From NCBI GenBank assembly GCA_963821525.1, contig CAWGED010000019.1:576001-640000 (forward strand): a DNA stretch of 64,000 nucleotides. Direction: 5' to 3'. Below, in pieces: positions 996 to 52,425 of the stretch. How positions within the stretch are numbered: position 1 is the first letter of the stretch; each line of letters begins with the position of its first letter. The notes under the pieces were generated by a model. It ran no database searches, had not been told where the DNA came from, and was given only the letters and a program-made list of their open reading frames with translations. Position numbers and translations under genes: made by a program. This DNA is from an uncultured Gemmatimonadales bacterium (GTDB lineage: Bacteria > Gemmatimonadota > Gemmatimonadetes > Gemmatimonadales > GWC2-71-9).

Positions 996-1006
996 CACCT
1001 GACACC

Positions 1007-3645
1007 TTGACCATCGACCTCGACTATCGACCGCCCTCGCCGACCGCTACCGCATCGAGCGGGAGCTGGGCCAGGGCGGCATGGCCACCGTGTATCTCGC
1101 CCAGGACCTGAAGCACGACCGAAGGTCGCGATCAAGGTGCTGCGTCCCGAACTCGCCGCCGTGATCGGGGCCGACCGGTTCCTCTCCGAGATCAAGACCA
1201 CGGCCAACCTGCAGCATCCGCACATTCTGCCGCTCTTCGACTCCGGGCGACGTGCCGAGTCGGCCGACCTCGTTCTACGTCATGCCGTTCATCGAGGGCG
1301 AGAGCCTCGCGACCGGCTCAATCGGGAGAAGCAGCTCCCGATCACTGATGCGGTACGGATCGCCACCGAAGTCGCCTCCGCCCTCGACTACGCCCACCGG
1401 CACGGCGTCATCCACCGCGACATCAAGCCGGAGAACATCCTGCTGCACGATGGACGCGCGCTGGTGGCCGACTTCGGAATTGCGCTGGCCGCGAGCAAAG
1501 CCGGCGGCAGCCGGATGACCGAGACCGGGATGTCGCTCGGCACGCCGACACTACATGAGCCCCGAGCAGGCCATGGGTCAGCGGGAAATCACCGCCCGGA
1601 GCGACATCTATGCCCTCGGTGCGATGACCTACGAGATGCTGACCGGCGAGCCGCCGTTCAGCGGACCCACCGCGCAGGCCATCGTGGCGAAGGTGCTCAC
1701 CGAGGAGCCGCGGCCGCTGATCCCCCGCCGCCACACCATCCCCCCCGACGTAGAAGAGGCCGTCCTGACCGCGTTGGAGAAATTGCCCGCGGATCGGTTC
1801 GATTCGGTCGCGGAGTTCGCCCGGGCGATCGGCGGCGATGGCAAAGGAGTGCGCTCGCCTGGAAAGCGAAGGCCGGTCCCGGCTCCCCGCCCATCCCGTC
1901 AGCTCTACCTGGCCCTCGCCCTCGGATCAGTCGCGCTGCTCGCGGCAGGCTTCTACGCCGGTTCGCGCCGGGGCGCGAGCGATTCACCCATCAAGGGACT
2001 CGGTGTCTCCACCAAGGTCACCTGGGATCCTGGGCTCGAGATCGAGCCGGCGCTCTCTCCGGATGGTAAATACCTGGCGTACGCCGCCGGCAACACGACC
2101 AGCCTGCGGATCTACGTGCGGCAAGTGAATGGCGGACGCCCGATTCCGCTCACCGAGGATTCGCTGGAGGTGCAGACCAATCCGTCCTGGTCGGGGGACG
2201 GCTCCCGCATTCTGTTCCTTTCCAACGGCGGGGTATTCAGCGCACCTTCCGCCGGCGGGGCGGCCCGACCGGAGATGCGCTCTCCACCGGGACTGCAGAT
2301 CATCTCCGCGGTCATGTCGCCCGATGGACAGACTCTCGGATATGCCGCAGGGGACTCGGTCTATCTGCGCGATGCGTCGGGGGCCGGCCGGCCTCTGGCC
2401 CGAGTGGCCGAGGCCTCGCTGTGCCAGTGGTCTCCCCGAGGCGAACTATTGGCCTGTGCGTCCGGGAATTCCTTCTACTCACGGGTCGGCGCGTTCTTCG
2501 GCAACCTGTCGCCCAGCCGGGTGACCGTGATCCGGGTGAAGGACGGGAGGACGACGACGGTAACTGACAGTACCTCCATCAATCAGAGCCCGGTCTGGTC
2601 TCCCGATGGGAAATGGCTGTACTACGTCTCGAGCAACCAGGGGCCGAGAGACGTCTTCGCGATTCGGATCGGGCGTGACGGCCGACCGATCGGCGCAGCG
2701 ACGCGGCTTACTGCGGGGCTCGGGGCCCAGTCAATCGCGCTGTCCGGAGACGGGCGCCGGATCGCGTACGCTGCATACGTGGGAACCTCGAACATCTGGT
2801 CGCTGCCGTTTCCGCCCAACGGCGAGACCCAGGCGAACGCGGTGCCGGTCACCAGCGGATCGCAGACCATCGAAGGCGGCCGGCCCTCGGTCGACGGCAC
2901 CTGGCTCTACTATCCATCAGATGTCAGTGGCAACTCCGAATTGTACCGGATGCGGCTGCCACACGGAGAGCCGGAGCAGTTGACCACCGATCCCAGCGAC
3001 GATTTCTCCCCCAAACCTTCGCCTGATGGCCGTGAGCTCGCCTTCCATTCGTGGCGCGCGGGCACCCGCGATATCTATGTGCTCCCGCTCGATGGTGGAC
3101 CGATACAGCAGGTAACCTCCACCCCACTCCAGGAGTCAGGGCCCGACTGGTCGCCCGACGGGCGAGCGCTGGCCTACGCCATGTTTGGCCAGCCGGGAGG
3201 CATTCGAGTCGTGCGGCGGAATACGGCCGGCGTTTGGGGCACGCCGGTGGAGCGAAGCTCGGCTGGGGTCTTGCCGGAGTGGTCTCCCGACGGGCGCTGG
3301 ATCGCTTATACCAGCACATTCCTGGGTGGCTCACTCTTCATCGTTGGTCCTGATTCTGGGGCGCCCCGGCTGGTCCTGGATTCCACCAATACCTGGGGCA
3401 TCCGGGCGCAGATGGCACATTGGAGCCGGGACAGCCGGACCCTCTATTTCAAGTCGGGGGATGCCAGGGGGAACGCCGCCTTCTGGGCCATTCCAGTGAC
3501 CGGAGGCACCCCGCGTCTGCTCATCCGGTTCGACGATCCCACTCGTCCCGCCTCTCGCCCCGAATGGTTCATCGGCAAAGGCCGGATGTATTTCGCGATT
3601 CAGGATCGGCAGAGTGACATCTGGGTGATGGAGGTGCGGAGGTGA
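1007..3645 (+). CDS. K1: Ser/Thr kinase - TM - TolB/PD40 beta-propeller (frameshifts in 5' part)
   Basis: GQGGMATV G-loop, [11 protein letters not shown] and MSPEQ across ORFs 1137/1252/1555. TM LYLALALGSVALLAAGFY, repeated WSPDG motifs, C-terminal SDIWV. Confidence 0.9.
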
Positions 3646-3734
3646 AAGGGGACTTGTCCAACATCTCGCCGTCCCTCACCACCGCCCTCGCCGACCGCTA
3701 CATGATCGAGCGAGAGCTGGGTCAGGGGGGCATG
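3642..3734 (+). pseudogene. Kinase 5' stub (…[21 protein letters not shown]) truncated by a palindromic element
   Basis: GTG overlaps the K1 stop. Kinase similarity ends at GQGGM, just before the hairpin element at 3746. Confidence 0.85.
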
Positions 3735-3745
3735 GTGCGCCGGTC

Positions 3746-3847
3746 CGTCGCTAAAGCGACGACTCGGCTATTGTCGCTAAAGCGACGTGACTTGGGAGGT
3801 AGGAGTCACTTCAGTGACATCAGCCGAGTCGCGGCTTGAGCCGCGGA
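3746..3847. mobile_element. Miniature non-autonomous derivative of the IS200-like element (both ends, no transposase)
   Basis: 3746-3786 matches the reverse complement of 14579-14619, and 3805-3847 matches the reverse complement of 14081-14124. Only 18 nt separate the two ends. Confidence 0.8.
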
Positions 3848-3883
3848 CCGGCAGACTATAGACTCGCAACACACGACCGGCGA

Positions 3884-6236
3884 TTGACCATCGACTCTCG
3901 ACTCGCCGCCGCCCTCGCCGACCGCTACCGGATCGAGCGGGAGCTGGGCCAGGGCGGTATGGCGACGGTGTATCTCGCCCAGGACCTGAAGCACGACCGC
4001 AAGGTCGCGGTAAAAGTGCTGCGACCCGAGCTGGCCGCGGTGCTCGGCGCCGAGCGATTCCTGGCTGAGATCAAGGTCACCGCCAATCTCCAGCATCCCA
4101 ACTTGCTGCCGCTCTTCGACTCGGGTGAAGCGGGTGGCTTCCTCTACTACGTCATGCCGTACGTCGAGGGAGAGACGCTGCGAAGCCGCCTCGAGCGCGA
4201 GCGGCAACTCCCGGTCGACGAGACCTCCCGCCTGATCACACTGATGGCCGGAGCACTCGACTATGCCCATGCCCGCGGGGTGATCCATCGCGATCTCAAG
4301 CCGGAAAACATCCTGCTCCAGGCCGGCCAGCCGGTGATCGCCGACTTCGGCATCGCACTGGCGGTGGCCCAGGCCGGCGGCTCCCGGGTTACCGAGACCG
4401 GACTCTCACTCGGCACTCCGCACTACATGAGCCCGGAGCAGGCGGCCGGCGAGCGCAACATCGATGCGAAATCCGACCAATACGCGCTCGCGGCGGTGAC
4501 CTACGAGATGTTGAGCGGCGAGCCGCCTCACACCGGCCCCACTGCCCAGGCCATCATCGCCCGGATGATGACGGAGAAGCCCCGGAGCCTGCAGGCGACC
4601 CGTTCCAACGTGCCGGTGGGGGTGGATCTCGCCGTCGGGCGGGCGTTGGCCAAGTCACCGGCCGACCGGTTCCCGTCCTGCGACGCCTTTGCCCAGGCGC
4701 TGGTTGCCGGCATGACCTCGGGTGCGGCTACTGTCGCCGACGCGGCTGTCCCACGGCGTCGCGGGCGATGGGTCGCCGCCGCCATCGCCCTGGTTGTGTT
4801 GGCTGGTGCGGCCCTGGGACTGACACGCTATCTGGGTGGAAGCGCCAGCGACCATTGATTCGATTGCGGTCCTCCCGCTCGACAACTATTCCGCCGACTC
4901 CACCCAGGACTACTTCGCCGAGGGGATGACGGATGAGCTGACCAGCGACCTCGCCATGATCAGCCAGTTGCGGGTCACCTCGCGCGGGTCGGCGATGCAG
5001 TTCAAAGGCAGGAATCGCCCGCCGACCCCGGAGATCGCGAAGGCCCTCGATGTCGACGCCGTTGTGGAGGGCTCAGTGTCCCGCTCCGGTGATCGGGTGA
5101 GGATCACCGCCCAGCTGATCGATGCCAGGGCCGACCGGCATCTTTGGGCCGAGACCTTCGAGCGCAATTCGAGCGACGTACTGGCACTCCAGGCCGAGCT
5201 GGCGTCGGCCATCGCCAGTGCGATCAACGTGCGGCTGACGCCGGGGGAGCAGTCCCGCCTCTCGGCTGCGCCGACCGTGGATCCGGGAGCCCACGACGCC
5301 TACCTCAAGGGGCGGTTCTTCTTCAATCGTCCGAGCGACGAGAACCTGCAGAAGGCCATCGTACAGTTCAACGAGGCGATCAAGCTGAGCCCGAACTTTG
5401 CCCCGGCGTATTCGGGGCTCTCGGATGCCTACACCTGGGCGGCCTACAACGAGGGATTCATTCGTGCCAGCGAAGCGAAGCCCCTGGCGAAAGCCGCCGC
5501 GGAACGGGCGGTTCAGCTCGACAGCCTGTCGGCGGAAGCCCACACCTCGCTGGGGGTCTACCTCGCTTGGTTCGACTACGACTGGGACCGAGGCGAGCGG
5601 GAACTCCGTCAGGCGATCGCCCTCAATCCCAGCTACGCCTACGCGCACGACCAGCTGAACCAGCTGCTGGGAATCATCGGTCGCTTCGACGAGGCGATTG
5701 CCGAGGGCCAACGGGCCATCGCGCTCGATCCACTGTCGCCCTCGATCCTGGAGGACCTGGCGACGACGTTGATCTACGCCGGCAAGGCGGCGTCGGCGCT
5801 GGAGCTTGCGAAAAAAGCCGCGGAGCTCGACCCGACCTTCTTCTTCCCGCCGGCTACGGAGGGGATTCTGGCGCTCCAGACCGGCAACTACCGCGAGGCC
5901 ATCGCGAAGTTTGAGCGCTCGCGGGCCCTGGATGCCCCGCCGTTCGTGACCGCCTACCTGGCGTACGCGTAGGGCATCTCCGGTGACCGCAGCCGCGCGA
6001 TGGCGACGCTCGGAGAACTCCAGAAGATGTCGCACGGGGAGGAGGCAGCCCCGTTCAACCTGGCACTGGTGTATCTCGGCCTCGGCGATCACGCGCGCGC
6101 GCTCGACTATCTCGAGCAGGCACATGCGGCCAGCTCGGAGATGCTGGTCTGGCTCAAGGTGGACCGGATCTACGATCCGCTGCGGTCGGAGCCGCGCTTC
6201 GTAGCCCTGATGAAGCGCCTGAACTTCGTCCAATGA
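3884..6236 (+). CDS. K2: Ser/Thr kinase - TM - TolB-N-like domain - TPR repeats (frameshift ~4850, in-frame TAG at 5970)
   Basis: HRDLKPEN and DFG motifs, TM WVAAAIALVVLAGAALGL, IAVLPL…DYFAEGMTDEL, TPR helices, C-terminal DPLRSEPRF. Confidence 0.9.
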
Positions 6237-6282
6237 GGCGCACGGGCTGAGCGGCTTGAGGAATCGGCGGCTCGGCACTATT

Positions 6283-6360
6283 CGGCAATCGGCAATCGAT
6301 AACGGGCAATAGCCTGACAACCTGACACCTGACACCTTGACCATCGACCCTCGACTATCT
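6283..6360. repeat. Heptamer repeat ladder (GGCAATC)n-(CCTGACA)n-(ACCATCG-like)n
   Basis: Visible 7-nt periodicity. The same succession of units occurs at ~977-1030 and ~11405-11470. Confidence 0.75.
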
Positions 6361-8619
6361 TCCGCGCTCGCCGATCGCTACCGGCTCGAGCGGGAGCTGG
6401 GCCAAGGCGGCATGGCGACAGTGTATCTGGCCGAGGATCTCAAGCACCGACGAAAGGTCGCGGTGAAGGTGCTGAAACCCGACCTGGCCGCGGCACTCGG
6501 CGCTGAACGCTTCCTGCGCGAAATCGAGACAACCGCGAATCTCCGCCACCCTCACATCCTGCCGTTGCTTCGACTCGGGCAGGTCATGGCGTCGACGGAC
6601 GATCTTTCTCTTACTACGTGATGCCGCTGGTGGAAGGAGAGTCCTTGCGCGATCGACTGAAGCGGGAGACGCAGCTGCCAATCCCGGACACGGTGGCGAT
6701 CATTCCGCGAAGTAGCCGACGCGCTGGCCTACGCGCACGGTCGAGGCGTGATCCATCGCGATATCAAGCCGGAGAACATTCTGCTCGAACGGGGCCATGC
6801 CGTCGTCGCAGATTTCGGTATCGCGCGTGCGGTGAGCACTGCGGGCGGCGAGAACCTCACCCAGACCGGCATGTCGCGTGGGCACTGCCGGCCTACATGA
6901 GTCCGGAGCAGGCCCTGGCCGATCAATACGCTCGACGCCCGAAGCGACCAGTACAGCTCTGGGCTGCTGTCCTCTACGAGTGCCTGACCGGCGAGATCCC
7001 CTTCGCCGGCAGCGCCGGTGCCATGCTGGGCGCAGCGGATAACCGAGTGCACCACCGTCCGCGCGCAACAAGCGGCCGGAGGTTACCGCCCAGGTTGACC
7101 ACGCCCTGTCGTACGCGCATTGAGCCACCGATCCATCGGCGCGGTTTGCCTCCTGCCAGGAACTGGCCGCGGCGCTGGTGGCGCCACACTTCGCTCCCAG
7201 GCCGGGTGCGCGGCACTGGCGCGGCGAGGCATCGTTGTCCTGCCATTCGCCAACCGGAGTCCCGACGCCGACAATGAATACTTCAGCGACGGGCTCACCG
7301 AGGAGATCATCGCCGACCTCGCCCGGATCAAGGCGCTGAGTGTCATCTCCCGCACCTCGGCGATGCAACTCAAGGGGACCGACAAGAACGTGAAGGTCAT
7401 CGGCCGGGAACTCGGCGTGCGCTACGTGCTGGAAGGAAGCGTGCGGAAGGCCGGCTCGAGCCTCAGGATCACCGCACAACTGGTCGATGCCGACACCGAC
7501 ACACCGCTCTGGTCGGAGAAGTACAGCGGCACCATGGACGACGTGTTCGAGGTGCAGGAGCGGGTGTCCCGCGAAATCGTGAAGGCGCTCGGCGTGACGC
7601 TGAGTCCCGACGAGGACCGTCACCTGGCGCAACGGCCGATCGAGAACGTGCAAGCGTTCGAGCTGTACCTGCAGGCGCGTCTCGAGTTCCGGCGCTACGG
7701 CGCCTCGATCGACCACGGCTTGGCGTTGCTCAACCGGGCCATCGAGATCGAAGGCGAAACTCCGCCGCTTCAGGCACTCGTCGCCTGGGCCAAAGTCTCC
7801 CTGGTCCGCTCCGGCCATGCACCCGATGGGCGACCGCTGGACGAAGCCGAGGCGGTGGCGAAGGCCCTGATCCTGCGTGCTCCGGAGGCGCCCTACGGCC
7901 ACGCCCTGCTGGGATTCATCGGCTATGAGCGCTGCCGAATGGCCGATGCGGTGCGCCATCTGCGGGCCGCACTCGAACGCGAACCCAATGATGCCGATGC
8001 CTTTTTCTTTCTCGGCGTTTCCTACATCGCAGCCGGCCAGGAGGCTCTGGCTGCGGAGACAGCGGCTCGGCTGATGGCATCCGATCCACTTTCACCATTG
8101 GGGTGGATGTTGACCGGCGTCGTGCCGTGGTTCATGGGGCGGCTCGGGGAGGGATTGCCAAGCCTGGTCCGAGCGGTGGAGCTGGACCCCGAAAACCTCC
8201 TGGCGCGTTGGTGCCTTGGGTACACCCATACCCTCGTGGGAGATGTGGAGGCGGGGACGAAGCATGCCGAGGTGCTCCGAACCAAATCGCCGGACCTGCC
8301 TTACACTCGCCATCTTCTGGCCCTGGTCGCGGCACTCTCCGGCCAGAGCGAAGCCGCTCTCAAACACCTGGCATCGGTGGAAGGTCTCGACGGCCACCAC
8401 AAGATGCATCTGGCCGAGGCCTTCGCGATGGCCGGTGACATCGACCGGGCACTCTCCCTGCTCGAGGAGGCGGTCAACCAGGGCTTCCATCCCTATCGCT
8501 TCATCGCGGAGTATTGTCCCTTCATGGCTCCGCTCCGCGGATTGCCGCGGTTCGAGGCGCTTGCCGCCCGCGCCCAGCGACTCACCGCGGAGTTCGGTAT
8601 CGCGGGAGGTAACTCATGA
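6337..8619 (+). CDS. K3: Ser/Thr kinase - TolB-N-like - TPR, no TM seen (multiple frameshifts in kinase part)
   Basis: [15 protein letters not shown]…[16 protein letters not shown] is readable in the DNA at ~6754-6777. [27 protein letters not shown] followed by TPRs. Confidence 0.85.
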
Positions 8620-8646
8620 GCGACGCGAGGCCCGACTCGCCGCATA

Positions 8647-8695
8647 CCGGTCCGTCGCTAAAGCGACGACTCGGCTATTGTCGCTAAAGCGACGT
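8647..8695 (+). repeat. REP-like double hairpin (GTCGCTAAAGCGAC x2), a single end of the IS200-like element
   Basis: 49 bp identical to 3740-3788. Confidence 0.85.
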
Positions 8696-8714
8696 CTCAC
8701 ACACACGACGTCCA

Positions 8715-11374
8715 TTGACCATAGACCATCGACTATCGACCGCGCTGTCTGACCGCTACCGCATCGAGCGGGAGTTGGGCCAGGGCGGCATGGCCACGGT
8801 CTACCTCGCCGAGGATCTCCGAGCATGGCCGCAAGGTGGCTATCAAGGTCCTCCGCCCCGAGCTCGCCGCGTCGATCGGGGCCGAACGGTTTCTGCGGGA
8901 GATCAAGACGATCGCGAAGCTGCAGCATCCCCACATTCTCGGTCTCATTGATTCCGGAGAGGTCGAGGGGGCCGCGTACTACGTGATGCCCTTCGTGGAA
9001 GGGGAATCGCTGCGGGACCGGCTCGATCGCGAGAAGCAGCTCGCCATCACCGACGCGGTCCGCATAGCCACCGAGGTCGCCTCGGCCCTCGACTATGCGC
9101 ACCGCCACGGGGTGATCCACCGCGACATCAAGCCCGAGAACATCCTGCTGCACGATGGCCAGGCCCTGGTCGCGGACTTCGGGATCGCACTCGCCGTGAC
9201 TCAGGCCGGGCGGCACCCGGATGACCGAGACCGGCCTGTCGCTCGGCACGCCGCACTACATGAGCCCCGAGCAGGCGATGGGCGAGCGCGAGCTAACCCC
9301 GCGGAGCGATGTCTACGCCCTCGGTTGTCTGACCTTCGAGATGCTCGCTGGAGACCCGCCCTTCACCGGGCAGCACCGCACAAGCCATCGTCGCCAAGGT
9401 CCTGAGTGAGAAACCGCCTTCGATCCGGCGGCTGCGCGACCGGGTTCCCGAATCGGTCGAAGAGGCGGTGTTCGTCGCCCTCGAGAAGCTTCCGGCTGAT
9501 CGGTTCGCGACCGCCGCCGAGTTTGCTACAGCACTGAACGGAGGCGGCACCAGCGCCCCGCGCCACGGCAGCACCAGTGCGAGGAGCCGAATCGCCGAGC
9601 CGCCGAGCCGTCGAGTAGCATTCCTCCTGCTCCTCGCCCTCATGCTCGGCGCTGGCTGGTTCCTCGGGCGTCGAAATAGCAACGCCGCCGCAGGACCGCC
9701 GTCGAGTCGTCTCGCGATGTTGTCACCCGCTCTGGGAGGGTCTGGGGCCGGCGGATTGCATCGCCAGCTGACGCTCACGCCCGACGGTTCCGCGGTGGTC
9801 TATGTCGGCGCTTCGGTTCGACAGGGGGCGACCACACTGTGGATTCAGCGAATGGACCAGCTCGAGCCCGCGCTGATTCCTGGGAGCGAACTCCTTCTCG
9901 CCCCTCAAGTGTCGCCCGACGGACGATGGCTCGCGGCCCAGAACGTCGCCGGCGATGTCATCCGCTTCCCCATGCAGGGCAGCACTGCCCAGCCGGCCCC
10001 TGTGTCCCGCGGGTTCTCCTTCTTTGCCTGGGGTCCCGACGGGAGTCTGTGGATTACCCGGGCACCGTTCCGCACAGTCGAGCGGGTGGCCCAAGGAAGT
10101 GATTCACTCGAGGTGCGCATCAAGGACCTGAGTCGAGGCCAGTACATCCAACAGATACTCGATGATGGGAGGCGCGCTGTCGTAGTTCAGGGCGACGGAT
10201 CTTCGAGTGGCCCATGCTTCATTATGGACCTCGCAACCGGCCGGTTGACCCCGCTGATCGAAACGCCCATCACCGCCGCGCGCTATGCCGCGGGATATCT
10301 GATTTACGCCCGGCCGGATGGAACCCTCCTCGCCGCTCCGCTCGATGCGCGTCAGACTCGAATCACCGGCGAGGCAGTTACCGTCGCAGAGGGAGTCTCC
10401 GTGACCGGAGGCGGCGACGCCCAGTTCGCGGTCGCGCCCAGCGGCACCTTGGTCTACGTCCCCGAGGAGCCGAGGTCACTGGTGTTCGTCGACCGGTCCG
10501 GATCGGCGCGGTCGGCGACCGAAGCGCGCCAGAACTTCCATGCCCCCTCGTTTTCGCCCGATGGGCGCCGCGTGTCGGTGGATTTCGTTTCCGCCGACGG
10601 CCGGGACGTGTGGATCCTCGATCTGGACCAGGGGACGCTTTCCGTGGTACCTTCGATCGCGACGGACACGACGCGGTGTGGACCAGAGACGGAAAGCAGA
10701 TCACCTACACGTCGTACCGCTCCGGCGTCTTCGGGGTCTATCGGACCCGCCCGGGCAGCGGCGCGCCCGCCGAATCGCTGCTGGCCTCGCCGTCGCTGGG
10801 CTACACCGGCCAGTGGCTGCCCGACGGTAGCGGGCTCGTGACCGTGACCTTCGACCTTCAGCCCCGATCGGGTCAGGACATCGGCCTCGTCACCCACGGC
10901 GGCCACGGACCGATCGAGCCGATCGTCGCCACGCCGTATCGGGAGTTGTACCCCTCCCTTTCTCCCGATGGCCGCTGGCTGGCGTTCGTCTCCGATCAGT
11001 CGGGACAGAGTCGAGTGTATCTGCGCCCGCTCCAGGGAGACGGTGATCAAGTTCAGATCTCCCAGGGCAACGCCGATGAGCCGGTCTGGGGGCCGGATAG
11101 CCGGGAGCTGTTCTATCGCGCCACCGATACCGGGCGACCCGAGCTGATTGCGGCCAGGCTCGAAACCACTCCGACCCTTCGAGTCCTTGAGCGGCGCCCG
11201 CTCTTCTCGGTCGAGAACTACGTACCGGCCACGCCACACGCCAGCTATGCCATCTCACCCGATGGCAAGACCTTCGTGATGGTCCAGCGCAACCCGGCGA
11301 GCCGCATCATGGTAATCCAGAATCTGCCGGGTCTGGTGGGCCGGCTGCGCGACGCGCAGAGTGCGCCCCATTGA
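8715..11374 (+). CDS. K4: Ser/Thr kinase - TM - double beta-propeller (frameshifted)
   Basis: Kinase motifs in ORFs 8715/8836/9221. TM VAFLLLLALMLGAGWFL, SPDGRWLAF repeats, C-terminal IMVIQNL. Confidence 0.9.
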
Positions 11375-11445
11375 GTCGGGGCCTCAGCCGCGAACTAGCG
11401 GCATATCGGCAACCGGCAATCACCTGACCCCGACACCTGACACCC

Positions 11446-13868: not shown

Positions 13869-13993
13869 ACCGACTGGCAGGGCGGTGAGGGGAGCAGTCG
13901 ATAGTCGATGGTCGATGGTACCGCACCGTACGGGAACGTAGTGTTTGCGCCGGTGTCCCAGGATTTGACCCCATATCCATGGACCACCGATCA

Positions 13994-14077
13994 TTGACCA
14001 TCGACCATCGACTATCGACCGCGCTGTCTGACCGCTACCGCATCGAGCGGGAGCTGGGCCAGGGCGGCATGGCCACG
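13994..14077 (+). pseudogene. Kinase 5' stub ([28 protein letters not shown]) interrupted by the IS200-like element
   Basis: First 80 bp identical to the K5 start (11446-11525). Kinase similarity ends 3 nt before the element end at 14081. Confidence 0.9.
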
Positions 14078-14523
14078 CTTTCCGCGGCTGAGAGCCGCGG
14101 CTCGGCTGATGTCGCTGAAGCGACGGGCCGGGCGGTCCAACCCGGTATGGCCTCATCGGGATGGTGCGTGTGCTGATGGCGCACATAGGCTGCCGCCACA
14201 CCCCGTTGGCGAGGACTCACACTGATCACGCTGTATCCTTTGGCCCATCGCAGGGCGGGGTCCTGCAGTGGCGCGCCACGATTGATCAGGGTAGCGGTGC
14301 CGCCCTTCATGCGTTGCAGCAGTCGGGGAATGACGGTAGAAGGATGCAGGCGCACCAGCAAATGCAGGTGCGTGGTCACGATACCGAGCTCGAGTACCCG
14401 CGCCCGCTCCTGCCGAGCAATAATGGGGAGATGCTTCCAGAGGTACTCGGCACGGGGCCGATCTATGGTCGGCTGACGATCACGGGTGGTCCAGACGATA
14501 TGGACCAGGAGCTGATGATGCAT
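14035..14523 (-). CDS. tnpA: IS200/IS605-family Y1 HUH transposase (TnpA / RAYT-like), no TnpB
   Basis: N-terminal HIVWTT strand, HUH motif HLH, and W..GY…SVS……YV..Q..HH catalytic Tyr motif. Confidence 0.9.
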   Translation of the reverse strand: MHHQLLVHIVWTTRDRQPTIDRPRAEYLWKHLPIIARQERARVLELGIVTTHLHLLVRLHPSTVIPRLLQRMKGGTATLINRGAPLQDPALRWAKGYSVISVSPRQRGVAAAYVRHQHTHHPDEAIPGWTARPVASATSAEPRLSAAESVAMPPWPSSRSMR

Positions 14524-14619
14524 ACATCAGGATCGACGCATCCCTCGATTGCGGCGGTACCATTCCAACGCACCGCAGGTCGCTTTAGCGACCTCAGCCG
14601 AGCCGTCGCTTCAGCGACG
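14081..14619 (-). mobile_element. IS200-like element: tnpA flanked by two REP-like double hairpins in inverted orientation
   Basis: Left end CCGCGGCTGAGAGCCGCGG-CTCGGCTGAT-GTCGCTGAAGCGAC (14082-14124). Right end GTCGCTTTAGCGAC-CTCAGCCGAGCC-GTCGCTTCAGCGAC (14579-14618). Confidence 0.8.
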
Positions 14620-14647
14620 AGCGCGGGCGGCGATCCTGAGAATCACG

Positions 14648-17350
14648 ATGCTTGACTCGCTCTCCCGCCTTACCGCCGCCCTCGCCGACCGCTACCGCAT
14701 CGAGCGGGAGCTGGGCCAGGGCGGCATGGCCACGGTGTATCTCGCCCAGGACCTGAAGCACGAGCGCAAGGTCGCGGTCAAGGTGCTGCGACCGGAGCTC
14801 GCGGCGGTGATCGGCGCCGAGCGATTTCTGAGCGAGATCAAGACCACGGCGAACCTGCAGCATCCGCACATTCTGCCCCTGTTCGACAGTGGGCGGACGG
14901 GCGGCAACGGGGACGAGCGGGCGGACGACTTCCTGTTCTACGTCATGCCGCTGATCGAGGGCGAGTCGCTCCGCGACCGGTTGAATCGCGAGAAACAGCT
15001 CCCGATTGGGGATGCGCTCCGCATCGCAACCGAAGTCGCGAGTGCGCTGGACTATGCCCACCGCCACAACGTCATCCATCGCGACATCAAGCCCGAGAAC
15101 GTCCTGCTGCACGACGGGCGCGCGCTGGTGGCCGACTTCGGAATTGCACTGGCCGCGAGCAAGGCGGGCGGCAGCCGGATGACGGAGACCGGGATGTCGC
15201 TCGGTACTCCGACCTACATGAGCCCCGAGCAGGCGATGGGAGAACGGGAGATCACCGCCCGCTCCGACGTCTACGCCCTGGGCGCCATGACCTACGAGAT
15301 GCTGCTGGGGGAGCCGCCGTTCACCGGGCCCACGGCGCAATCGATCGTGGCGAAGGTGATGACCGAGAAGCCGGCTTCGCTCATCTCGCGGCGGGATCGG
15401 ATCTCACCGGCCGTCGAGGATGCGGTGCTGACCGCGCTGGAGAAGCTGCCGGCCGACCGGTTCGGGAGTGCAGCGGAGTTTTCGGCGGCGTTGAATGGGG
15501 ATAGCGGCTCGGCGACTCGGCGGCTCGGCGGCTCGGCCCCGCAGCCCGAGGCTCGGCGGGGCGTAGGCCGGCCCGCGCTTTATGCGATGCTGGTCATCAC
15601 CTCGCTGGCCGCGGTCTTCTTCGCCTGGCGCGCCGCGCATCACCCCGCCGGCCCGGTCACCCGACTCACACTCGACCTGCCGGAACTCAGGGTCAATCAC
15701 CTCAGCTACTACGGGAGCGCCCTCGCGGTGGCTCCCGACGGCTCGTCGCTGGTTTACGTCACCGAGAGTCCGGGCACGCCTACCCGGCTCATGGTGCGGG
15801 AACGCGGGAATCTTACGCCGCGGCTGCTCGAAGGGACCGACGGAGCGGATGGGCCGTTCTTTTCGCCCGACGGCCGCTGGGTGGCTTACACCGCCGCCAA
15901 GAAGATCTTCAAGGTGCCGGTCGCAGGGGGGACTCCGGTGCTCGTCGCGGATGCGGCGGCCAATGAGCTGGCCAGCGGAACCTGGCTGGACGACGGCCGG
16001 ATCGTCTTCACCAATCAGTCCTTCGAGATCCTTACCGTGCCGGCGGCCGGGGGGCAGGTTTCCCGGGTCGTACCACCACCCGTCAGCTTCGGCTGGGCCT
16101 TTCCCACCGCGCTGCCGGTCAAGGATGTCATCCTGATCACCGAGTGCAGCAACAACTGCTCGCGGATGAACCTGTTGGCCATGAATCTGAAAACGCTGGC
16201 GCGGGACACCATCCTTCCCAACACCTCACGGGGCTTCTACCTCCCCACCGGTGATCTCCTCGCGGTGCAGCAGGATGGCAACGTGGTGGCGGGACATTTC
16301 GATCTCGGCAAGCTGCGATATACCGATCCACCCGTCGTGGTGCAGAGCGCAGTCCAGCTCGAACTCGGCATCACGCCCGAGCTGGCCGTGGCAAATGACG
16401 GGACGCTCATCTACCTCGCCGCCAATCAGACGGGAACCGATGCGACCATCGCACGGGTGGATCGGACCGGCAAGGCTCGGGTGCTCGATCCCGACTGGAC
16501 GGCGCGGGTCAGCAGCCTGGCCCTCTCGCCCGACGGGCGCCGCGTCGGGATCAGCACCCTCGAGCAGTCCGGCAATGTGCTCTGGATGAAAGAGCTCGAC
16601 GCCGGCCCCCTGACCCAGCTCAGCTTCGACGGCACCATCAACTACCGCCCGTCGTGGCGCCCCGACGGACGCAGCATCAGCTTCACCTCGGACTTCAAGG
16701 GACTGGCCTCGTACCTGTACACGATGCGGGCGGATGGCAGCGACAAGCCGGAGCGAGTCCTGCCCAACGAACCGCTCCAGGTCGATGAAGCGGTCTGGTC
16801 ACGGGATGGCCGCTGGCTGGTGTACCGGACCGGCGTCACCGGAGGCTCGCGCGACATATACGCCCGGCAGCTCTCGGGCGACACCAGCCGGATCACCGTC
16901 GCGGCCGGCGCCGCCGATGAGTACATGGCGGCGCTTTCGCCCGACGGCCGCTGGATCACCTACGTCTCGGTCGAATCAGGCAAGGAGGAGGTCTACGTCC
17001 GGCCTTTTCCCGAGACCAGCAGGGCGCGGTGGCAGGTCTCCGCGGCGGGCGGATCCAATCCCGCCTGGTCGCACTCGGGACGTGAATTGTTCTATGTCGA
17101 CCGGGCCGACAGCCTGATCGCGGTGAGCGTGACCGGTACCACCGACTTCCAGATCGGCCCCAGGCGCGCGCTGTTCAGCACCCGGCCATTCCTGCTGCTG
17201 CCATTTCACCGCACGTACGACGTGTTCCCCGACGATCAATCGTTCCTGCTGCTCAAGCGTCCGTTCACCGCCACCACCGAGGCCAATCGGCTGACGGTCG
17301 TGCTGAACTGGTTCAGTGAGGTGAAGGCGAAGGTGAGACAGGGGAGGTGA
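14648..17350 (+). CDS. K6: Ser/Thr kinase - TM - double beta-propeller (intact)
   Basis: Single ORF with all kinase motifs, TM ALYAMLVITSLAAVFFAW, SPDG repeats and C-terminal VVLNWFSEV. Confidence 0.95.
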   Translation: MLDSLSRLTAALADRYRIERELGQGGMATVYLAQDLKHERKVAVKVLRPELAAVIGAERFLSEIKTTANLQHPHILPLFDSGRTGGNGDERADDFLFYVMPLIEGESLRDRLNREKQLPIGDALRIATEVASALDYAHRHNVIHRDIKPENVLLHDGRALVADFGIALAASKAGGSRMTETGMSLGTPTYMSPEQAMGEREITARSDVYALGAMTYEMLLGEPPFTGPTAQSIVAKVMTEKPASLISRRDRISPAVEDAVLTALEKLPADRFGSAAEFSAALNGDSGSATRRLGGSAPQPEARRGVGRPALYAMLVITSLAAVFFAWRAAHHPAGPVTRLTLDLPELRVNHLSYYGSALAVAPDGSSLVYVTESPGTPTRLMVRERGNLTPRLLEGTDGADGPFFSPDGRWVAYTAAKKIFKVPVAGGTPVLVADAAANELASGTWLDDGRIVFTNQSFEILTVPAAGGQVSRVVPPPVSFGWAFPTALPVKDVILITECSNNCSRMNLLAMNLKTLARDTILPNTSRGFYLPTGDLLAVQQDGNVVAGHFDLGKLRYTDPPVVVQSAVQLELGITPELAVANDGTLIYLAANQTGTDATIARVDRTGKARVLDPDWTARVSSLALSPDGRRVGISTLEQSGNVLWMKELDAGPLTQLSFDGTINYRPSWRPDGRSISFTSDFKGLASYLYTMRADGSDKPERVLPNEPLQVDEAVWSRDGRWLVYRTGVTGGSRDIYARQLSGDTSRITVAAGAADEYMAALSPDGRWITYVSVESGKEEVYVRPFPETSRARWQVSAAGGSNPAWSHSGRELFYVDRADSLIAVSVTGTTDFQIGPRRALFSTRPFLLLPFHRTYDVFPDDQSFLLLKRPFTATTEANRLTVVLNWFSEVKAKVRQGR

Positions 17351-17351
17351 G

Positions 17352-17545
17352 TGGAGACGGAGACGGGAGACGGGAGACGGAGGACGGGGGACGGGAGACG
17401 GGGCGGACGGGCGGACGGAGGGCGGACAGGGCGGACCGACGAACCGACGAACCGACGAACCGACGAACCGACGAACCGACGAACGTTAACGGCTGACGGC
17501 ATCTAACAACCAACGACCATTGACCATCGACCTCGACTCACGACC
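17352..17545. repeat. Composite microsatellite: (GGAGACG)n, (GGGCGGAC)n, (ACCGACGA)6, then GAC-phased heptamers into the K7 start
   Basis: Six perfect ACCGACGA copies at 17435-17482. The other units are read directly from the sequence. Confidence 0.9.
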
Positions 17546-22541: not shown

Positions 22542-22596
22542 ATCGTGCCTTCATCCGCGGACGAGCAGACTCACGACTCACGACTCACGACGACCA

Positions 22597-25220: not shown

Positions 25221-25266
25221 GGCGATTTCAAATTGGCAAATTTCAAGTTTGCAAATTTCTGATTTC

Positions 25267-25296
25267 ATGACCATCGACCAGCGACTTTCGACCGCC
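25267..25296 (+). pseudogene. Minimal kinase start stub (MTIDQRLSTA) after AT-rich 7/8-mer repeats
   Basis: 25268-25295 is identical to the K12 start 31960-31987 and is out of frame with K10. Confidence 0.65.
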
Positions 25297-25328
25297 CCTT
25301 CGGCGCCAAAGCATCCTCTGGAGTCAGG

Positions 25329-27959: not shown

Positions 27960-28088
27960 TCGTGGGTCGTGGGTCTTGAGTCACGACCAACGACCACGGT
28001 CAAATTGTCCCGCGTTTCCGGAGCCTGAGCGGTCCGCGCTCTGGCGTGTTCTGCACTGCCCGCCCATCTTTGCGGCCACCAGCCACTC

Positions 28089-31486: not shown

Positions 31487-31514
31487 AAGTCGACTGTCAT
31501 GTGTCGTCGGTCGT

Positions 31515-31585
31515 CACGACTCACGACTGCAGACTCTCAACTCTAGACCCACGACCAACGACCATTGACCCTCGACCAGCGATCT
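31515..31585. repeat. GAC-phased degenerate heptamer ladder (CACGACT CACGACT GCAGACT CTCAACT CTAGACC CACGACC AACGACC ATTGACC CTCGACC)
   Basis: Direct 7-nt periodicity in the sequence. Confidence 0.8.
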
Positions 31586-31677
31586 CCTCCGCACTCGCCG
31601 ACCGCTACCGCATAGAGCGGGACCTGAAGCACCACCACAAGGTGGCGATCAGAGCTCCAGCCGAACTCGCGTCGTAA
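31561..31677 (+). pseudogene. Kinase 5' stub with the Gly-rich loop deleted
   Basis: Reads [31 protein letters not shown]…; [14 protein letters not shown] (14 codons) is missing. Confidence 0.8.
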
Positions 31678-31958
31678 GTCTTGAGTCGTAGGACCCACGA
31701 CCACTGACCATCGACTATCGACGGCCGCCCAGCGACTTTTCCGACGGCCGAGACCAATGATGGCGGGCAGAGGTCATCCGGGTAGCTTTAGAACGCACTC
31801 CTGATCCAAATAACGCGAGACAGACCAGCACCCCCGCTTGGGGGAATAACATGCTGAGCCGGCGGTGAGGTAACCGTTATAACGCTCCTCGACACCAAGG
31901 CACGCTCGGAGCGACCGTCTTTCCCGTCTCCCCGTCTCCCATCTCCCAGGGTTAGGCC

Positions 31959-34634
<2,676 letters not shown>

Positions 34635-34647
34635 GCGGAGCCACACG

Positions 34648-37300: not shown

Positions 37301-37414
37301 CGCTTCACGATTTGATGAGCGACCCTTGACTGATCTCATTCACAGCCCTGAGCTTGAGGCGAGCAGCTTTTCCCGTCCCCCTTCTCCCTTCTCCGCAGTT
37401 AAGTCGAGGATTCC

Positions 37415-38293
37415 ATGACCCAGCCTGTCATCGCGCCGGACACCACGGCGCGGAAGCCACGGGACGACGAAATCGACGTCTATGGGATCACCCATCCCGG
37501 CAAAGTGCGCAAGGACAATCAGGACCATTTTCTGATCTGTTCGCTCCGACCCGGGGTCGTCGTCCACCACACCAGCCTGCCCGACACGGGGCGGTGGTCC
37601 GGGGCGGAGCGATTAGCGTTTCTCGCCATGGTCGCCGATGGGGTGGGCGGGAGCGCCATGGGCGAGGAGGCGAGCCGACTGGCGGTCGCCGGCATCACGG
37701 ACTATGTGACCCAGTGCGTGCACACCTACTACACCGCCGACTCCAGCAATGACGCCGGCTTTGCCGACGCGCTCGTCGAGGCGGCGATGCAAGTGCACGC
37801 GCGAATCGTGGAGCAGACCCGGGAAGCGGACGACCCGCGAGGTGGGTCCACCACGCTGACCCTGTGGATTGGCGTGTGGCCCCGGGCCTACCTGCTGCAG
37901 GTGGGAGACAGTCGCTGCTACACGCTCCGGGAAGGAGTCCTCACCCAGATCTCACGGGACCAGACGATGGCCCAGGAGCTGATCGACGCCGGCGTGCTCA
38001 AGCGCACCGAAGTCCGTCGTACCCGCTGGGCGCACGTGCTCTCCAGCTCCATCGGAGGACACCAGACCGCGCCGGTGGTTACCCGCATGGACCAGGAGTG
38101 GGGCAGAGTCGGCCTTCTCTGCAGCGACGGTCTCACCAAACACGTCTCGGACGAACGGATCGCCGAGCAGCTGCGGAATATGAGTTCGGCCAAGCAGGTC
38201 TGCGAGGCGCTGCTGCAGGATGCTCTGGATGATGGCGGGACCGACAACATCACCATCCTGGTGGGACGACCGGTTCGGAAAGACCTCGCGTGA
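37415..38293 (+). CDS. PP2C/PPM-family Ser/Thr protein phosphatase (soluble, PrpC/Stp1-like)
   Basis: GKVRKDNQD, VADGVGG, VGDSRCY, LLCSDGL and GGTDNIT motifs. Confidence 0.95.
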   Translation: MTQPVIAPDTTARKPRDDEIDVYGITHPGKVRKDNQDHFLICSLRPGVVVHHTSLPDTGRWSGAERLAFLAMVADGVGGSAMGEEASRLAVAGITDYVTQCVHTYYTADSSNDAGFADALVEAAMQVHARIVEQTREADDPRGGSTTLTLWIGVWPRAYLLQVGDSRCYTLREGVLTQISRDQTMAQELIDAGVLKRTEVRRTRWAHVLSSSIGGHQTAPVVTRMDQEWGRVGLLCSDGLTKHVSDERIAEQLRNMSSAKQVCEALLQDALDDGGTDNITILVGRPVRKDLA

Positions 38294-38361
38294 CGGATGC
38301 CTCTCCGGCGTTGACCGCCGCCCTCGCCGACCGTTACCGCATTCTGCTGGAGCGGAAATGA
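38290..38361 (+). pseudogene. Kinase 5' stub (MTDASPALTAALADRYRILLERK*) bridging phosphatase and dehydratase
   Basis: GTG overlaps the PP2C stop, and its TGA overlaps the dehydratase ATG. Confidence 0.8.
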
Positions 38362-39334
38362 AAACCACCGAGTCCGTTCGTCCCATAGACCTCGCCGAGA
38401 TTCGCGAGGCCCAACGTCGCATCGCGGGAACCATCTTCCGTACGCCGCTGGTCCGTCTCGAGCTGGGACCCGGCTTTCCCGACATTCGGCTCAAACTCGA
38501 AGTGCTTCAGCCCATCAATGCCTACAAGCTGCGCGGCGCGGCCAACGCGGTCGCCATGCTGTCCGACTCGGAACGAAAGCGTGGGGTCTGGACGATCAGC
38601 GCCGGCAACGCGGGACAGGGAGTCGCCTACGCCGCGAGAGCAGCCGGTGTCCCCTGCACCGTTGTCGCGATCGAAACCGCTCCCGCCTCAAAGCTCGAAC
38701 GGATGAAGGCGCTCGGCGCCAAACTGGTGCTGGTGCCCTACGAGGTGGCCTGGAAGGCGCTCGACGAGCGGGCCTAGCCGGGGTCGAAGGAACCTTCATT
38801 CACCCCTTCGATGACGACAATTTCATCGCCGGGCACGCGACGATGGGGCTGGAGATTCTGGAGGACGCGCCGGAGACGGCGGCAGTTATCGCCGCCATTG
38901 GTGGCGGTGGACTCATCACGGGCGTCGCGAGTGCCATGAGAGCCATCAAACCCGAGATCAAGGTGTGGGGCGCCGAACCGGAGACCGCTGCTCCGCTGTC
39001 GCTCTCCCTCGCTAGCGGGTCCCCTCAGTCATTCAAGGACTGGAAGGCATCGTTCGTGGATGGTGCCGGCGGACAGAGTGTCTTCCCCCGGATGTGGGAG
39101 CGGATGAAACCGGTGGTGGATGGTTGTATTGTTGTAACGCTGGACGAGACGAAACGGGCCATGCGATTGATGGCCGAGAAGGCGCGAATCATCGCGGAAG
39201 GCGCGGGATGCTTGCCGGTCGCGGCCGCTCTGACCGGGAAAGCGGGACAAGGTCCCATCGTCGCCATCGTCTCCGGCGGGAATATCGACCTGCAGAAATT
39301 CTCCGATCTGATTGGCACGACGCCGCGTGCATGA
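38358..39334 (+). CDS. PLP-dependent threonine/serine dehydratase (or serine racemase-like), no ACT domain; interrupted ~38775
   Basis: LKLEVLQPINAYKLRGA PLP-lysine motif, SAGNAGQG, IGGGGL, VSGGNID. Confidence 0.9.
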
Positions 39335-39457
39335 CGGCGTCGGCAGTCGAGTGTCGATGGTCGATAGTCATCAGTCCTGACCCGGGACTCAAGACTCGGG
39401 ACGCATCATTCAGGCCTGTCGAATCCAAGTACTAATCACGTCTACCGACATCGACCA

Positions 39458-42151
39458 TTGACCATCGACCATCGACTATCGACCGCTTTGTCCGACCGCT
39501 ACCGCATCGAGCGGGAGCTGGGCCAGGGCGGCATGGCCACCGTCTACCTGGCCCAGGACCTGAGGCACGACCGCAGAGTCGCGGTGAAAGTCCTGCGCCC
39601 CGAGCTGGCCGCCGTCATCGGCGCCGAGCGGTTCCTGAGCGAGATCAAGACCACCGCGAACCTGCAGCACCCGCACATCCTCCCGCTCTTCGATTCCGGC
39701 GCCGCCGACAGCTTCCTCTTCTACGTCATGCCGTTCGTCGAAGGCGAGTCACTGCGCGATCGGCTGAGCCGGGAGAAGCAGCTGCCGATCCCGGACGCGG
39801 TACGGATCGCCACCGAAGTCTGGGTGCCCTGGACTACGCCCACCGCCACGGCGTCATCCATCGGGACATCAAGCCGGAAAACATCCTCCTGCACGATGGC
39901 CGGGCGCTGGTCGCGGACTTCGGGATTGCGCTGGCAGCCAGCAAGGCGGGCGGCACTCGTATGACCGAGACCGGCATGAGCCTCGGCACGCCGATCTACA
40001 TGAGCCCCGAGCAGGCGATGGGGGAACGGGAGATCACCGCGCGGAGCGATGTGTACGCCCTCGGCTGCGTGCTGTACGAAATGCTGGTGGGAGAGCCGCC
40101 ATTCACCGGGCCCACCGCGCAGGCGATTGTTGCCAAGGTGGTCACCGAGGAGCCGCGCGCGCTAAGACCCAAGCGACACACCATCCCAGCGAATGTCGAA
40201 GCGGCGACGATGACGGCACTCGAGAAGCTGCCGGCCGACCGGTTCGCCAGCGCTGCGGAGTTCGCTGCGGCGCTGGGCGAGGCGTCGTACGGCACCGAGC
40301 GTGTCACGGCCACGACGACCGCCGCAGCCCGGCGAGACACACAGCGCCGAGGGCGGTATCTCCCTGCAGTGCTGGCTGCGCTGGGAGGTCTGGCGCTCGG
40401 CGCATCGCTCCTGAGCATGCTGCGCTCTCCGGTCTCGGCACCCGTCACCCGCTATGGTCTGTCGCTCCCCCCGGACCAGGAACCGGTGCGGGAATGGCAG
40501 GTGATCCCCTCTCCGGACGGGTCTCAGATCGCCTACGTGGGCCCGGCCGAACGCACGACGCAAATCTGGATCAAGCGACGGGACCGTTATGAAGCTTCTC
40601 CGCTCCCGGGGACGCTTGGGGTGACCAACTTCACTTGGTCTCCCGACGGCGCGGTGGATCGCGTTCACCCAAGGCACTCAACTCAAGAAGCAGCCGGTCG
40701 TAGGAGGAACCGCGACCACGCTGGCTGATAACGTGTCAGCCTTTCCAGGAATCGCCTGGCTGGATGACGGGAATATCGTCTTCATTCGAGCCGGCGGAAT
40801 CGCGCTCATGCGAGTGGCGGAAAGCGGCGGGGAGCCCGCCGAGGTCCTGACGGATAGCACCGGAATTGGCCTGCTCACCCCATTGCCCGGAGGGCGAGGC
40901 GTGCTCTTTGGTCGCTGCCGGCGCAACTGCTCCCAGTTGGATCTCTGGGTGGTCGACCTGAAGTCGAGCAAGTCGCACCAGGTAGTTCCCGGTGCGGTCA
41001 TGGGACACTACGTGAAGACCGGGCACCTCCTGTTCGTCCGGCCGGATGGCGGGCTGTTCGCGGCACCGTTCAGCCTGCGCTCTCTGGATCTGACTGGCCC
41101 GGCGGTTCCCGTCCTGGATAGTGTAGCGGTGCTCGGTGGAGTCTACCCGCTGTTCGCGGTTTCCTCCTCGGGTACCTTGGTGATGCGTTATGGAGCGGCA
41201 CCGGCAGCAGGGCAGCAGTTTTCCATGGTGTGGGTGGACCGCACCGGGCGCGTGACGCCGGTCGATTCGGGTTGGACCCTTCAGTTTACCAACTTTGGCG
41301 AAAACTACGGGTGGGCCCTGTCGCCCGACGGCAAGCGATTGGCCCTTGGCCTCGCGACAGACGCCGGCGACGACATCTGGGTCAAGCAGCTTCCGCGAGG
41401 TCCCTTGTCACGGGTCTCCTATGACGGGGCGTCGGAATACCGGCCTCGGTGGATGCCGAACGGGCGCGAAATCATGTTCGGGTCCAACCGGGCCGGCACC
41501 GGGACCGGGGGGCTGTACTCACGACCTGCCGACGGCACCGGTTCGGATTCGCTCATCCTGCGCGCGGAACAGGGGATCTTCGAGAGCGTCTGGTCACCGG
41601 ACGGCCGCTGGCTCCTGTTCCGGACTGGTGGCACCGTGGGCCAGATGGGAGGGCGGGACATCGTAGGTATTCGTCCCGGCGTCGACAGTGCGCCGGTGCC
41701 GGTGGTGGTGACCCCCTATGACGAAGAAGCGATCGCGATCTCACCCGACGGACGATGGCTGGCCTACGAGTCCAACGAAACCGGGAAAACCGAGGTGTAC
41801 CTCCGGCCATTTCCAAACACCAACAGCGGCAAGTGGCAGATCTCGAATGGCGGAGGAGTCGCTCCGCTCTGGGCGAGGACCGGTCGCGAACTTTTCTACG
41901 TCAGCGCTGCGCGCGACATGATGACCGCCACTATCGGCCCCGGCGTCCAGCCGACGATCGGGACCCCACGGATTCTCTTTCATCTCCGGGATGACCTCTA
42001 TATGACGCCTACGGAGTTCTACACCCCGTTCGATGTCGGTCCGGACGGCCGCTTCATCATGGCGCGAAGCGAGACCCCCGAAGCAATTTTTAACGCCCCG
42101 CTGGTCGTGGTGGACAACTGGTTCGAGGAGCTGAGGCAGCGAACCCATTGA
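39458..42151 (+). CDS. K14: Ser/Thr kinase - TM - double beta-propeller (frameshifts ~39820, ~40650)
   Basis: ORFs 39458, 39961 and 40733 join into one gene; C-terminal VVDNWFEEL. Confidence 0.92.
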
Positions 42152-47755: not shown

Positions 47756-49712
<1,957 letters not shown>

Positions 49713-49877
49713 AGCATTAAGCCTGTTAGCTTTTAGCCGTTGGCTTTGAGCCGGGGAGTCTCCGGCCGGGGCCAACGGCTGTTATTTTTGGCAGATCGTA
49801 ACGGAATGCGACGCAAACCACCGACGGCGCATCCCACGTAGACTAGATTGTTTGCCGAGCCCCTTTGGGAGAAACCG

Positions 49878-52122: not shown

Positions 52123-52425
52123 GGCGGACCAAGAGCGGGCGGACCTAAAAGGGGCGGACCAAAAGCGGGCGGACCTAAAAGCGGGCGGACCGGCGGACAT
52201 AAGCCGTAGGCGATAAGCCGTAAGTGCACCTCATCCCGAGGCGCGAAGCGACGAGGGATCTAGTCCCCTTACCTTGGACTCCGGGTAAGGACGCTAGATC
52301 CCTCGCTGCGCTCGGGATGAGGTGCCTTTTGCTTATGGCTTATGGCTTATGGCCTACGGCTTACGGCTTATGGCTTACGGCCTATGGCTTACAGCTTTGT
52401 CTGACGGCTAACAGCTGACGGCTAG
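52123..52425. repeat. Nested repeat region: GGCGGACC 15/16-mers, inverted heptamer arms (CATAAGC/GCTTATG) and a ~100-bp palindromic element (52226-52325)
   Basis: GCACCTCATCCCGAG…GAGGGATCTAG pairs with CTAGATCCCTC…CTCGGGATGAGGTGC. About 9 GCTTA[TC]G-type units follow. Confidence 0.85.

Follow-up and report, generated by a model that had tools for sequence, protein, structure and literature searches.

Probable start exchange and a hairpin element with its cognate Y1 transposase in a tandem kinase array of the Gemmatimonadales

In the soil bacterium studied here, an uncultured member of the Gemmatimonadales (genome G000), an IS200-like Y1 (HUH) transposase gene lies between inverted double-hairpin arms inside a tandem array of kinase genes, most of which is covered by the window analysed (the 64,000-nucleotide stretch G000:C19:576001-640000). 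The nearest described elements are the TIRtrons (TIRYT; Di Nocera et al. 2013, PMC3733652), in which a Y1 gene likewise stands between terminal inverted repeats, some of them double-palindromic, and copies of the repeat occur dispersed, singly, as dimers or in groups; the Gemmatimonadota element differs in lacking GGGGWSAS, and its protein fits TnpAY1 subclass 1.2, not 2.1. The main text of that paper leaves Gemmatimonadota unmentioned, and the portions of it drawn on here describe no gene-start duplication. Subclass 1.2, as presented in the cited parts of Quentin et al. 2018 (PMC6006769), shares the Y---Q--HH signature, short core, low copy number and absence of tnpB, and is found mostly in Cyanobacteria and Bacteroidetes, generally without terminal structures, whereas the Gemmatimonadales element has conserved, covarying arms and WA in the W motif in place of the listed WQ. 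REPINs and their RAYT (TnpA-REP) transposases, in the sections cited (PMC3116915, PMC3479197, PMC8266576), also combine two inverted hairpin units and a spacer into one long hairpin, and form tandem clusters that include flanking DNA, with cutting and joining that take place at varying distances from the hairpin. The present element, in contrast, has no GTAG foot, scores below the RAYT cut-off, reaches at most tens of copies and has junctions inside coding sequence.

For the array itself, the parallels lie elsewhere. In esaG/tipC arrays (PMC9484751, sections cited), short conserved blocks drive loss, expansion and mosaics without a dedicated recombinase, and Rhs orphan-tip displacement is grouped with them as a homology-block likeness; in the kinase array, the corresponding block lies at the very N-terminal end of ~2.7-kb genes and is also used by modules without a body (element, cargo). 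Integrative mobilisable elements in dusA and SXT in prfC (PMC8409611, sections cited) resemble the array in that incoming DNA provides a new 5' end and the old start persists as a fragment; they carry a tyrosine integrase and use one fixed attachment (att) site, whereas the kinase array has no integrase nearby, modules of 0.2-0.7 kb and lineage-variable breakpoints. We found no description of Gemmatimonadota kinase arrays or of this repeat in the literature searched, of which supplements (e.g. the TIR lists of PMC3733652) could hold related repeats; on the heptamer repeats and TnpA capture, general papers only were found, subscription journals lying mostly outside the scope. TIRtron/REPIN elements and homology-block shuffling of tandem paralogues are known, and the kinase-start case is a variant of them; the repeat family with its cognate Y1 transposase is previously undescribed.

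The array members are Ser/Thr kinases of the Hanks type, with PD40 propellers or TPR-like tails fused to them. G000 holds 86 kinase-domain loci (tblastn), kinases amounting to ~2% of its genes by our own estimate, and a motif screen places 22 full kinase copies at C19:546-645 kb. A first-pass annotation of the window had pointed out six orphan kinase 5' fragments, each followed by different DNA and then a complete kinase, and had proposed that DNA enters near the kinase start and leaves the old start behind. All six fragments are present where they had been placed, and each is followed as described; two further stubs lie upstream of the window (C19:556748 and 574130). The features concerned are as follows, in window coordinates.

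3642..3738, + strand: kinase 5' stub, ending after the GGM codons; true start probably TTG 3654; same in G003
3739..3852, unstranded: mini-element, non-autonomous, REPIN/MITE-like, with two inverted 41-nt double-hairpin arms and an 18-nt spacer
3853..6236, + strand: leader and complete kinase K2, TTG start at 3884
8616..8645, + strand: short decayed stub, ATG overlapping the upstream stop; identical in G003; followed by the K4 restart at 8715
8646..8696, + strand: single arm (half mini-element)
13889..14022, unstranded: heptamer-repeat inverted repeat, its right arm forming the start of stub 13994
13994..14077, + strand: kinase 5' stub ending at GGMAT; 80/84 nt as in the K14 start; same junction position in G359
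14035-14523, - strand: IS200-like HUH/Y1 transposase gene tnpA, 162 aa, with HLH and Y---Q--HH motifs; its tail crosses the arm
14078..14619, - strand: complete element, Y1 gene between inverted double-hairpin arms (14082-14124 and 14579-14619)
14648..17350, + strand: complete kinase K6 (Pkinase and PD40 propeller), divergent from tnpA
25267..25295, + strand: ten-codon stub without an arm; 27 bp the same as the K11 start at 31961
31565..31735, + strand: decayed stub without an arm, running to about codon 54 with an internal deletion; a second leader fragment follows at 31704
37415..38293, + strand: PP2C-type Ser/Thr phosphatase
38290..38361, + strand: internal-deletion remnant, kinase 5' end joined to the last codons of the pre-dehydratase kinase
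38358..39334, + strand: threonine/serine dehydratase-like pyridoxal phosphate enzyme, interrupted near 38777; followed by the K14 start at 39458

The six stubs have mixed origins, not one mechanism. The stubs are real: those at 3642 and 8616 recur in the congener G003 almost base for base, the 38290 stub is longer there, and short-read contigs from other runs span the 8616 junction (contig X2, 8333-8747) and the 13994 junction (contig X6, 14044-14704). This bridging evidence consists of contigs rather than raw reads and covers window 1-15500, hence not 25267, 31565 or 38290; the contig across 3642 stops at 3743, a few bases into the element. K2, K4 and K14 do begin TTG-ACC-ATC-GAC, as had been noted. 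The stub starts had been described as non-repeat starts overlapping the upstream stop, and the ATGA/GTGA overlaps at 8616 and 38290 stand, while the one at 3642 is fortuitous. Contig G002:C434 carries the intact 3642 allele, with the same upstream kinase, an 83-nt heptamer leader, the TTG start (window 3654) and a different full body; since the leader is present in G002, the GTG overlap at 3642 is secondary, arising from loss of the 83-nt heptamer leader. The body of this G002 allele is only ~72% like K2, and the K2 orthologue in G004 (96.9% body identity) has another leader, without stub or mini-element.

We characterised the element that stubs 3642, 8616 and 13994 adjoin, each through a 41-nt arm made of two hairpins linked by CTCGGCT. 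The inverted doublet is REPIN-like: the mini-element folds as one hairpin (-39.4 kcal/mol, z -6.9), and its stems are kept by compensatory change, all 260 stem cells pairing and 28 being changed on both sides in 20 hand-picked arms (0/500 shuffles reach that; the search pattern itself fixes the inner stem). Arm conservation stops sharply at the stem foot, with a weak flank (GAGCT/CGGTC/GAGTC). Arms and tnpA co-occur. The protein has the HUH motif and catalytic Tyr of IS200/IS605-family Y1 transposases and passes the family cut-offs (PF01797, 64 bits, cut-off 23; NF033573, 58.6 bits, cut-off 55). It does not behave as a multicopy insertion sequence of subclass 1.1, one cognate copy being found among 4 Y1 matches in G000, and there is no space for tnpB between the arms; by motif rather than by tree, it fits subclass 1.2, with low copy number and the Y---Q--HH signature, which is present in 16 of 30 tnpA loci. 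Membership of the RAYT/GTAG-REP group is not borne out (GTAG in 1/180 arm feet; NF047646 21 bits against a cut-off of 80). The layout is that of a TIRtron, in which terminal inverted repeats that are in part self-complementary flank the Y1 gene and occur dispersed as well; neither the GGGGWSAS motif nor the helix-turn-helix tail of the TIRtron main group (subclass 2.1) was found in the arm consensus and the 162-aa protein, which matches Y1_Tnp only. Rfam gave 0 matches at gathering score in the window. A second Y1 transposase has sister arms (L001, G000:C12:49270-49960; L324, L325 and L315), and related arms adjoin kinase stubs in G084 and G204. Two regions, L002 and L003 (G000:C12 and C1), are near-identical and carry the same Y1 gene on two contigs, which suggests a duplicated assembly segment or a strain mix.

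A homologous locus bears on how an arm comes to lie behind a start. Contig G002:C71 carries an empty allele, in which the private start VNTLDALATS comes after a leader and runs on into GHGGM and the body; in G003, the same leader and start lead into a mini-element, after which the start is repeated and the same body follows (95.6% identity). This pair shows an insertion-type origin as an outcome. The empty alleles asked for in the first-pass annotation thus exist for this homologous stub; no exact one was obtained for the stubs of the window in the 4 congeners searched. The same arrangement occurs outside kinases: the 5' half of tRNA-Ser(CGA), an arm, heptamers and the full tRNA-Ser follow one another in G000, G003 and G004 (decayed in G001), and G159 has the plain, empty gene.

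L270:637-852 (G000:C5), and L271-L274: tRNA-Ser stub, arm and restart in the four congeners, plain gene in G159

Because the 5' half is duplicated around the arm, the tRNA case is not easily explained by loss of a paralogue body. Together with tandem stub-element units in G004, L115 and L245, these loci show segment duplication as an outcome. Arms were also observed after tRNA-Phe (repeated 3' end) and tRNA-Leu (L071:7967-8140; L080; L048, L046, L089).

Across genomes, the arm pattern was found in 32 of 201 family genomes with 0 control matches (the unpublished G018 being counted as a non-match), and records carrying the repeat are mostly Gemmatimonadota. Of 222 distinct arm matches, a set enriched by the choice of arrays, 18 lie next to a kinase stub, another 34 point at a kinase start at a distance of 58-233 nt and 2 follow a tRNA, the others including some chance matches outside the phylum; in the genome-wide-scan subset, among the matches listed, 8/130 adjoin a stub and 20/130 face a kinase start. 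A complete element behind a stub was also found at L157 and in G359, a member of another genus with a full element, a tnpA 86% identical and the same GGMATV junction. A sister arm family, kin to the arms of the second G000 tnpA, has its junction after ERE in G084 and G204 (a search for this junction matched 1/401 genomes in a sample without G204). The metagenome scan for stub-arm junctions yielded 5 loci, of which L245 is true and the other 4 arose by chance. Depending on the lineage, independent junctions lie after RY, ERE, GGM, GGMAT(V) or VKVL, which rules out one fixed att site. In L326 (G143:C22), a toxin-antitoxin-like gene pair stands behind each of two kinase stubs, its stop overlapping the start of the next kinase.

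Breakpoints were surveyed with a DNA profile of the first 277 kinase codons, which detects divergent kinases less well and passes over the shortest stubs (those at 8616 and 25267, ~10 codons long, score below it). In five congeneric arrays (G000 and congeners G001-G004), we counted 97 complete kinases and 15 stubs, all of which stop by codon ~54, besides 6 matches at contig edges and a single later break, near codon 260; 12 of the 15 stubs adjoin an arm at codons 28-30, and kinase matches elsewhere in G000 gave 0 stubs in 62. Four other genomes gave 40 complete kinases, 3 stubs and 1 break at codon ~102, and in eight more, 107 kinases were complete and 5 stubs stopped at codons 20-23, with one internal piece, one late break and one match at an edge in addition. 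Among junctions that are probably independent, 17/21 end by codon 56 against 15% expected (p about 4e-11, a rough value for a hand tally with independence judged by eye). The clustering of stub breakpoints at DRYRI...GQGGM, which the first-pass annotation had put forward as a check, is borne out (15 by codon ~54 vs 1 later).

Nowhere are the paralogues more homogenised than in this 13-residue block. Among the 14-16 paralogues per genome whose frames are intact, the first window of 15 codons had a synonymous identity of 0.65-0.73 vs 0.38-0.62 elsewhere, or 1.44-1.55x the codon-usage expectation vs <=1.39, making it the top window in 4/4 genomes. Array order differs among G000, G001, G003 and G004, with collinear flanks, and 12 of 25 orthologous pairs (body identity >=90%) are <70% identical over the 11 codons that precede the block; the clear start swaps are K6, with three starts in three species, and K7. 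The start-swap contrast appears real but modest. Nucleotide identity is raised in a block that all paralogues share, and mosaic alleles and gain or loss with apparent crossovers in the block are seen, as in homology-block recombination of tandem paralogues. The block is homogenised, orthologous bodies have different starts and neighbours, and stubs end in or just after the block. The idea of the kinase 5' end as a cassette-like reshuffling site fits in so far as the array is reshuffled between species, not as one mechanism for all six stubs; that the kinase is kept intact through a second 5' end proved correct.

Plain loss also makes stubs. In G003, the 38290 stub runs on into 28 codons that are the 3' end of a full kinase in G001 and G004, where that kinase overlaps the dehydratase start. 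Stub 38290 is an internal deletion, in which a 5' end is fused to the 3' tail of the kinase natively before the dehydratase. The dehydratase had been taken for an insert; it is ruled out as one, being a native neighbour preceded by an intact kinase 3' end in G001 and G004, and the insert at 13994 is a complete Y1 transposase element. G003 holds another 5'-plus-3' kinase remnant. In G001, the propeller gene upstream of 31565 is directly followed by a full kinase, and stubs 31565 and 25267 likely come from plain loss of a kinase body. For 25267, the 27-bp match to the K11 start represents the sole two copies in the genome, and the genes between 25267 and K11 are absent from G003 at that site; its origin is ambiguous.

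On this evidence, we consider it probable that the 5' block is the crossover point of the array and that stubs arise either linked to the element or by plain body loss. The first 45-90 bp of the gene, encoding a 19-residue stretch and often following a heptamer leader, would be the near-identical block at which array members cross over. In the element-linked route, the element would often sit just upstream of a gene, and the segment from the arm foot to codon 15-30 would be duplicated or circularised, so that the 5' part of the gene runs into the arm foot at the product junction. The first cut may be made by TnpA overshooting from the arm foot to a look-alike site in the next gene; alternatively, template switching at the hairpin via short microhomologies might produce it, and short matches between kinase and arm foot are read directly at several junctions. 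A module with its own copy of the block could then enter other kinases by homologous recombination, leaving the old start as a stub and supplying a new in-frame start, and such recombination would explain one junction behind at least nine different starts. In the second route, the kinase body is lost and its ends are left, as shown for 38290 and likely for 31565 and 25267; longer remnants would probably be removed by recombining out with the next kinase.

Several observations weigh against this account. Most arms (168/222) have no kinase beside them, and the arm-adjoining stub of L172 has no restart within 300 bp. Arm-free stubs make up 3/15 in the genus and 2/5 in the eight-genome set. Of 100 control windows just inside the kinase after the block, 20 also fall below 70% identity, and 2 of the 12 start-swapped pairs reflect a one-base assembly indel. 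No exact empty allele of any window stub was found in the 4 congeners, nor of 8616 and 13994 in the 5 genomes searched, and the intact 3642 allele leads into a different body, which deletion fits equally well. No common cleavage dinucleotide could be fixed. The loci were partly picked for having arms or arrays, and related genomes are non-independent. Kinase-to-kinase joints in contigs of other runs (hundreds, mostly from other organisms) were set aside, none being used as an empty allele.

The Y1 family might itself perform 5'-end capture, excising its arms with the start of the following gene and re-entering matching starts (kinases, tRNA-Ser) without killing them, and so drive an integron-like, recombinase-free array of 20-30 sensor kinases; we regard this as unlikely. 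Since no integrase lies near the array and arm-free arrays exist, we see the element as a passenger that is now and then a cause, rather than as a proven engine.

It is similarly doubtful that all stubs are ordinary deletion remnants, in which the body of one kinase was lost up to an intergenic element or cargo before the next and the short stubs survived by overlapping the upstream gene or by being too short to recombine away. Stub 38290 and the other G003 remnant are of exactly this kind, the intact 3642 allele has another body, arms in G159 and G200 commonly separate the intact end of one kinase from the start of the next, and in G143 the stubs stand ahead of toxin-antitoxin operons that are coupled to the following start. 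Deletion cannot, however, easily give a duplicated 5' half of the single-copy tRNA-Ser, nor can it give a duplicated private start with an empty allele, and independent losses would not recreate a single junction in 12 cases with differing starts; as the sole cause, it is refuted.

Rather less probable is that the Y1 transposase acts as a dedicated integron-like recombinase, recognising the arms and a kinase 5' site and moving cassettes or start modules without host recombination. The tnpA relatives with arms often sit immediately ahead of a kinase start, 5 of the 7 closest matches having a kinase match within 1.5 kb; the distance from the ATG of GGM to the hairpin is 11 nt at several junctions, arms are spaced ~2.8 kb apart along the array in some genomes, and REP-associated TnpA cuts and joins at variable hairpin distance (PMC3479197, PMC8266576, sections cited). 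Breakpoints nevertheless differ by lineage, weaker tnpA relatives are not beside kinases, most kinase junctions of the window have no arm, and G089 has a large array of shuffled type with 22 kinases and 0 arms. Nor does the array fit 5'-end replacement by an integron or integrase, with no adjacent recombinase and variable breakpoints: no integrase or resolvase was found near the array, and G000 (81% complete) has 3 tyrosine recombinases, the nearest ~200 kb beyond the window, and 0 resolvase matches. The first-pass annotation had seen no integrase, which holds for the surroundings of the array; a DNA-breaking enzyme, the Y1 HUH transposase, does lie inside the 13994 insert.

We judge it very improbable that a clean insertion between GGMA and TV killed the start and that gene conversion from an arm-leader-start copy later rescued it: the final layout would be the same, and templates with an arm before a kinase start are common, but no unrescued intermediate was seen, 32/32 kinase-facing arms face a complete start, and the tRNA-Ser has no template. 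That the stubs are long-read assembly artefacts is scarcely credible, the window having many one-base frameshifts, several of them missing in other runs, while the junctions recur in other species, fragmented assemblies and independent contigs, refuting it for 3642, 8616, 13994 and 38290 (25267 and 31565 lie outside contig coverage).

Further features were noted in and around the array. Its right border (window 47798-51437) carries dnaK and a DegP-like protease, with flanks collinear with G003. Long 7-9-nt microsatellites, often as inverted pairs, stand at gene junctions (G000:C19:556400-556620; window 17353-17484 and 52123-52423), change fast between species and are the source of MTID-type starts. 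Two small in-frame repeat-derived insertions follow the FDSG motif of the kinase domain (window 20446-20472 and 14903-14928), one of them a CGTC-type palindrome that recurs at 52230-52325. A non-coding motif upstream of array genes, consisting of AACGCGA, a C-run/G-run hairpin and then GGTAACC (window 31812-31875), has further copies at G000:C10:126143, three in G004 and one in G003, without an Rfam match, and is possibly regulatory. Dense one-base frameshifts at window 11500-13500, 6550-7150 and 1000-1560, several of them missing in contigs of other runs, indicate assembly errors.

These results provide a concrete turnover route for one of the largest bacterial Ser/Thr-kinase arrays, in which a 45-90 bp N-terminal coding block would act as a universal exchange site across the whole family. 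The element lives inside gene starts, even that of a tRNA, without inactivating them, and the repeat family, with its cognate Y1 transposase and natural junction sequences, makes the spread of REP/TIR-type elements testable in vitro.

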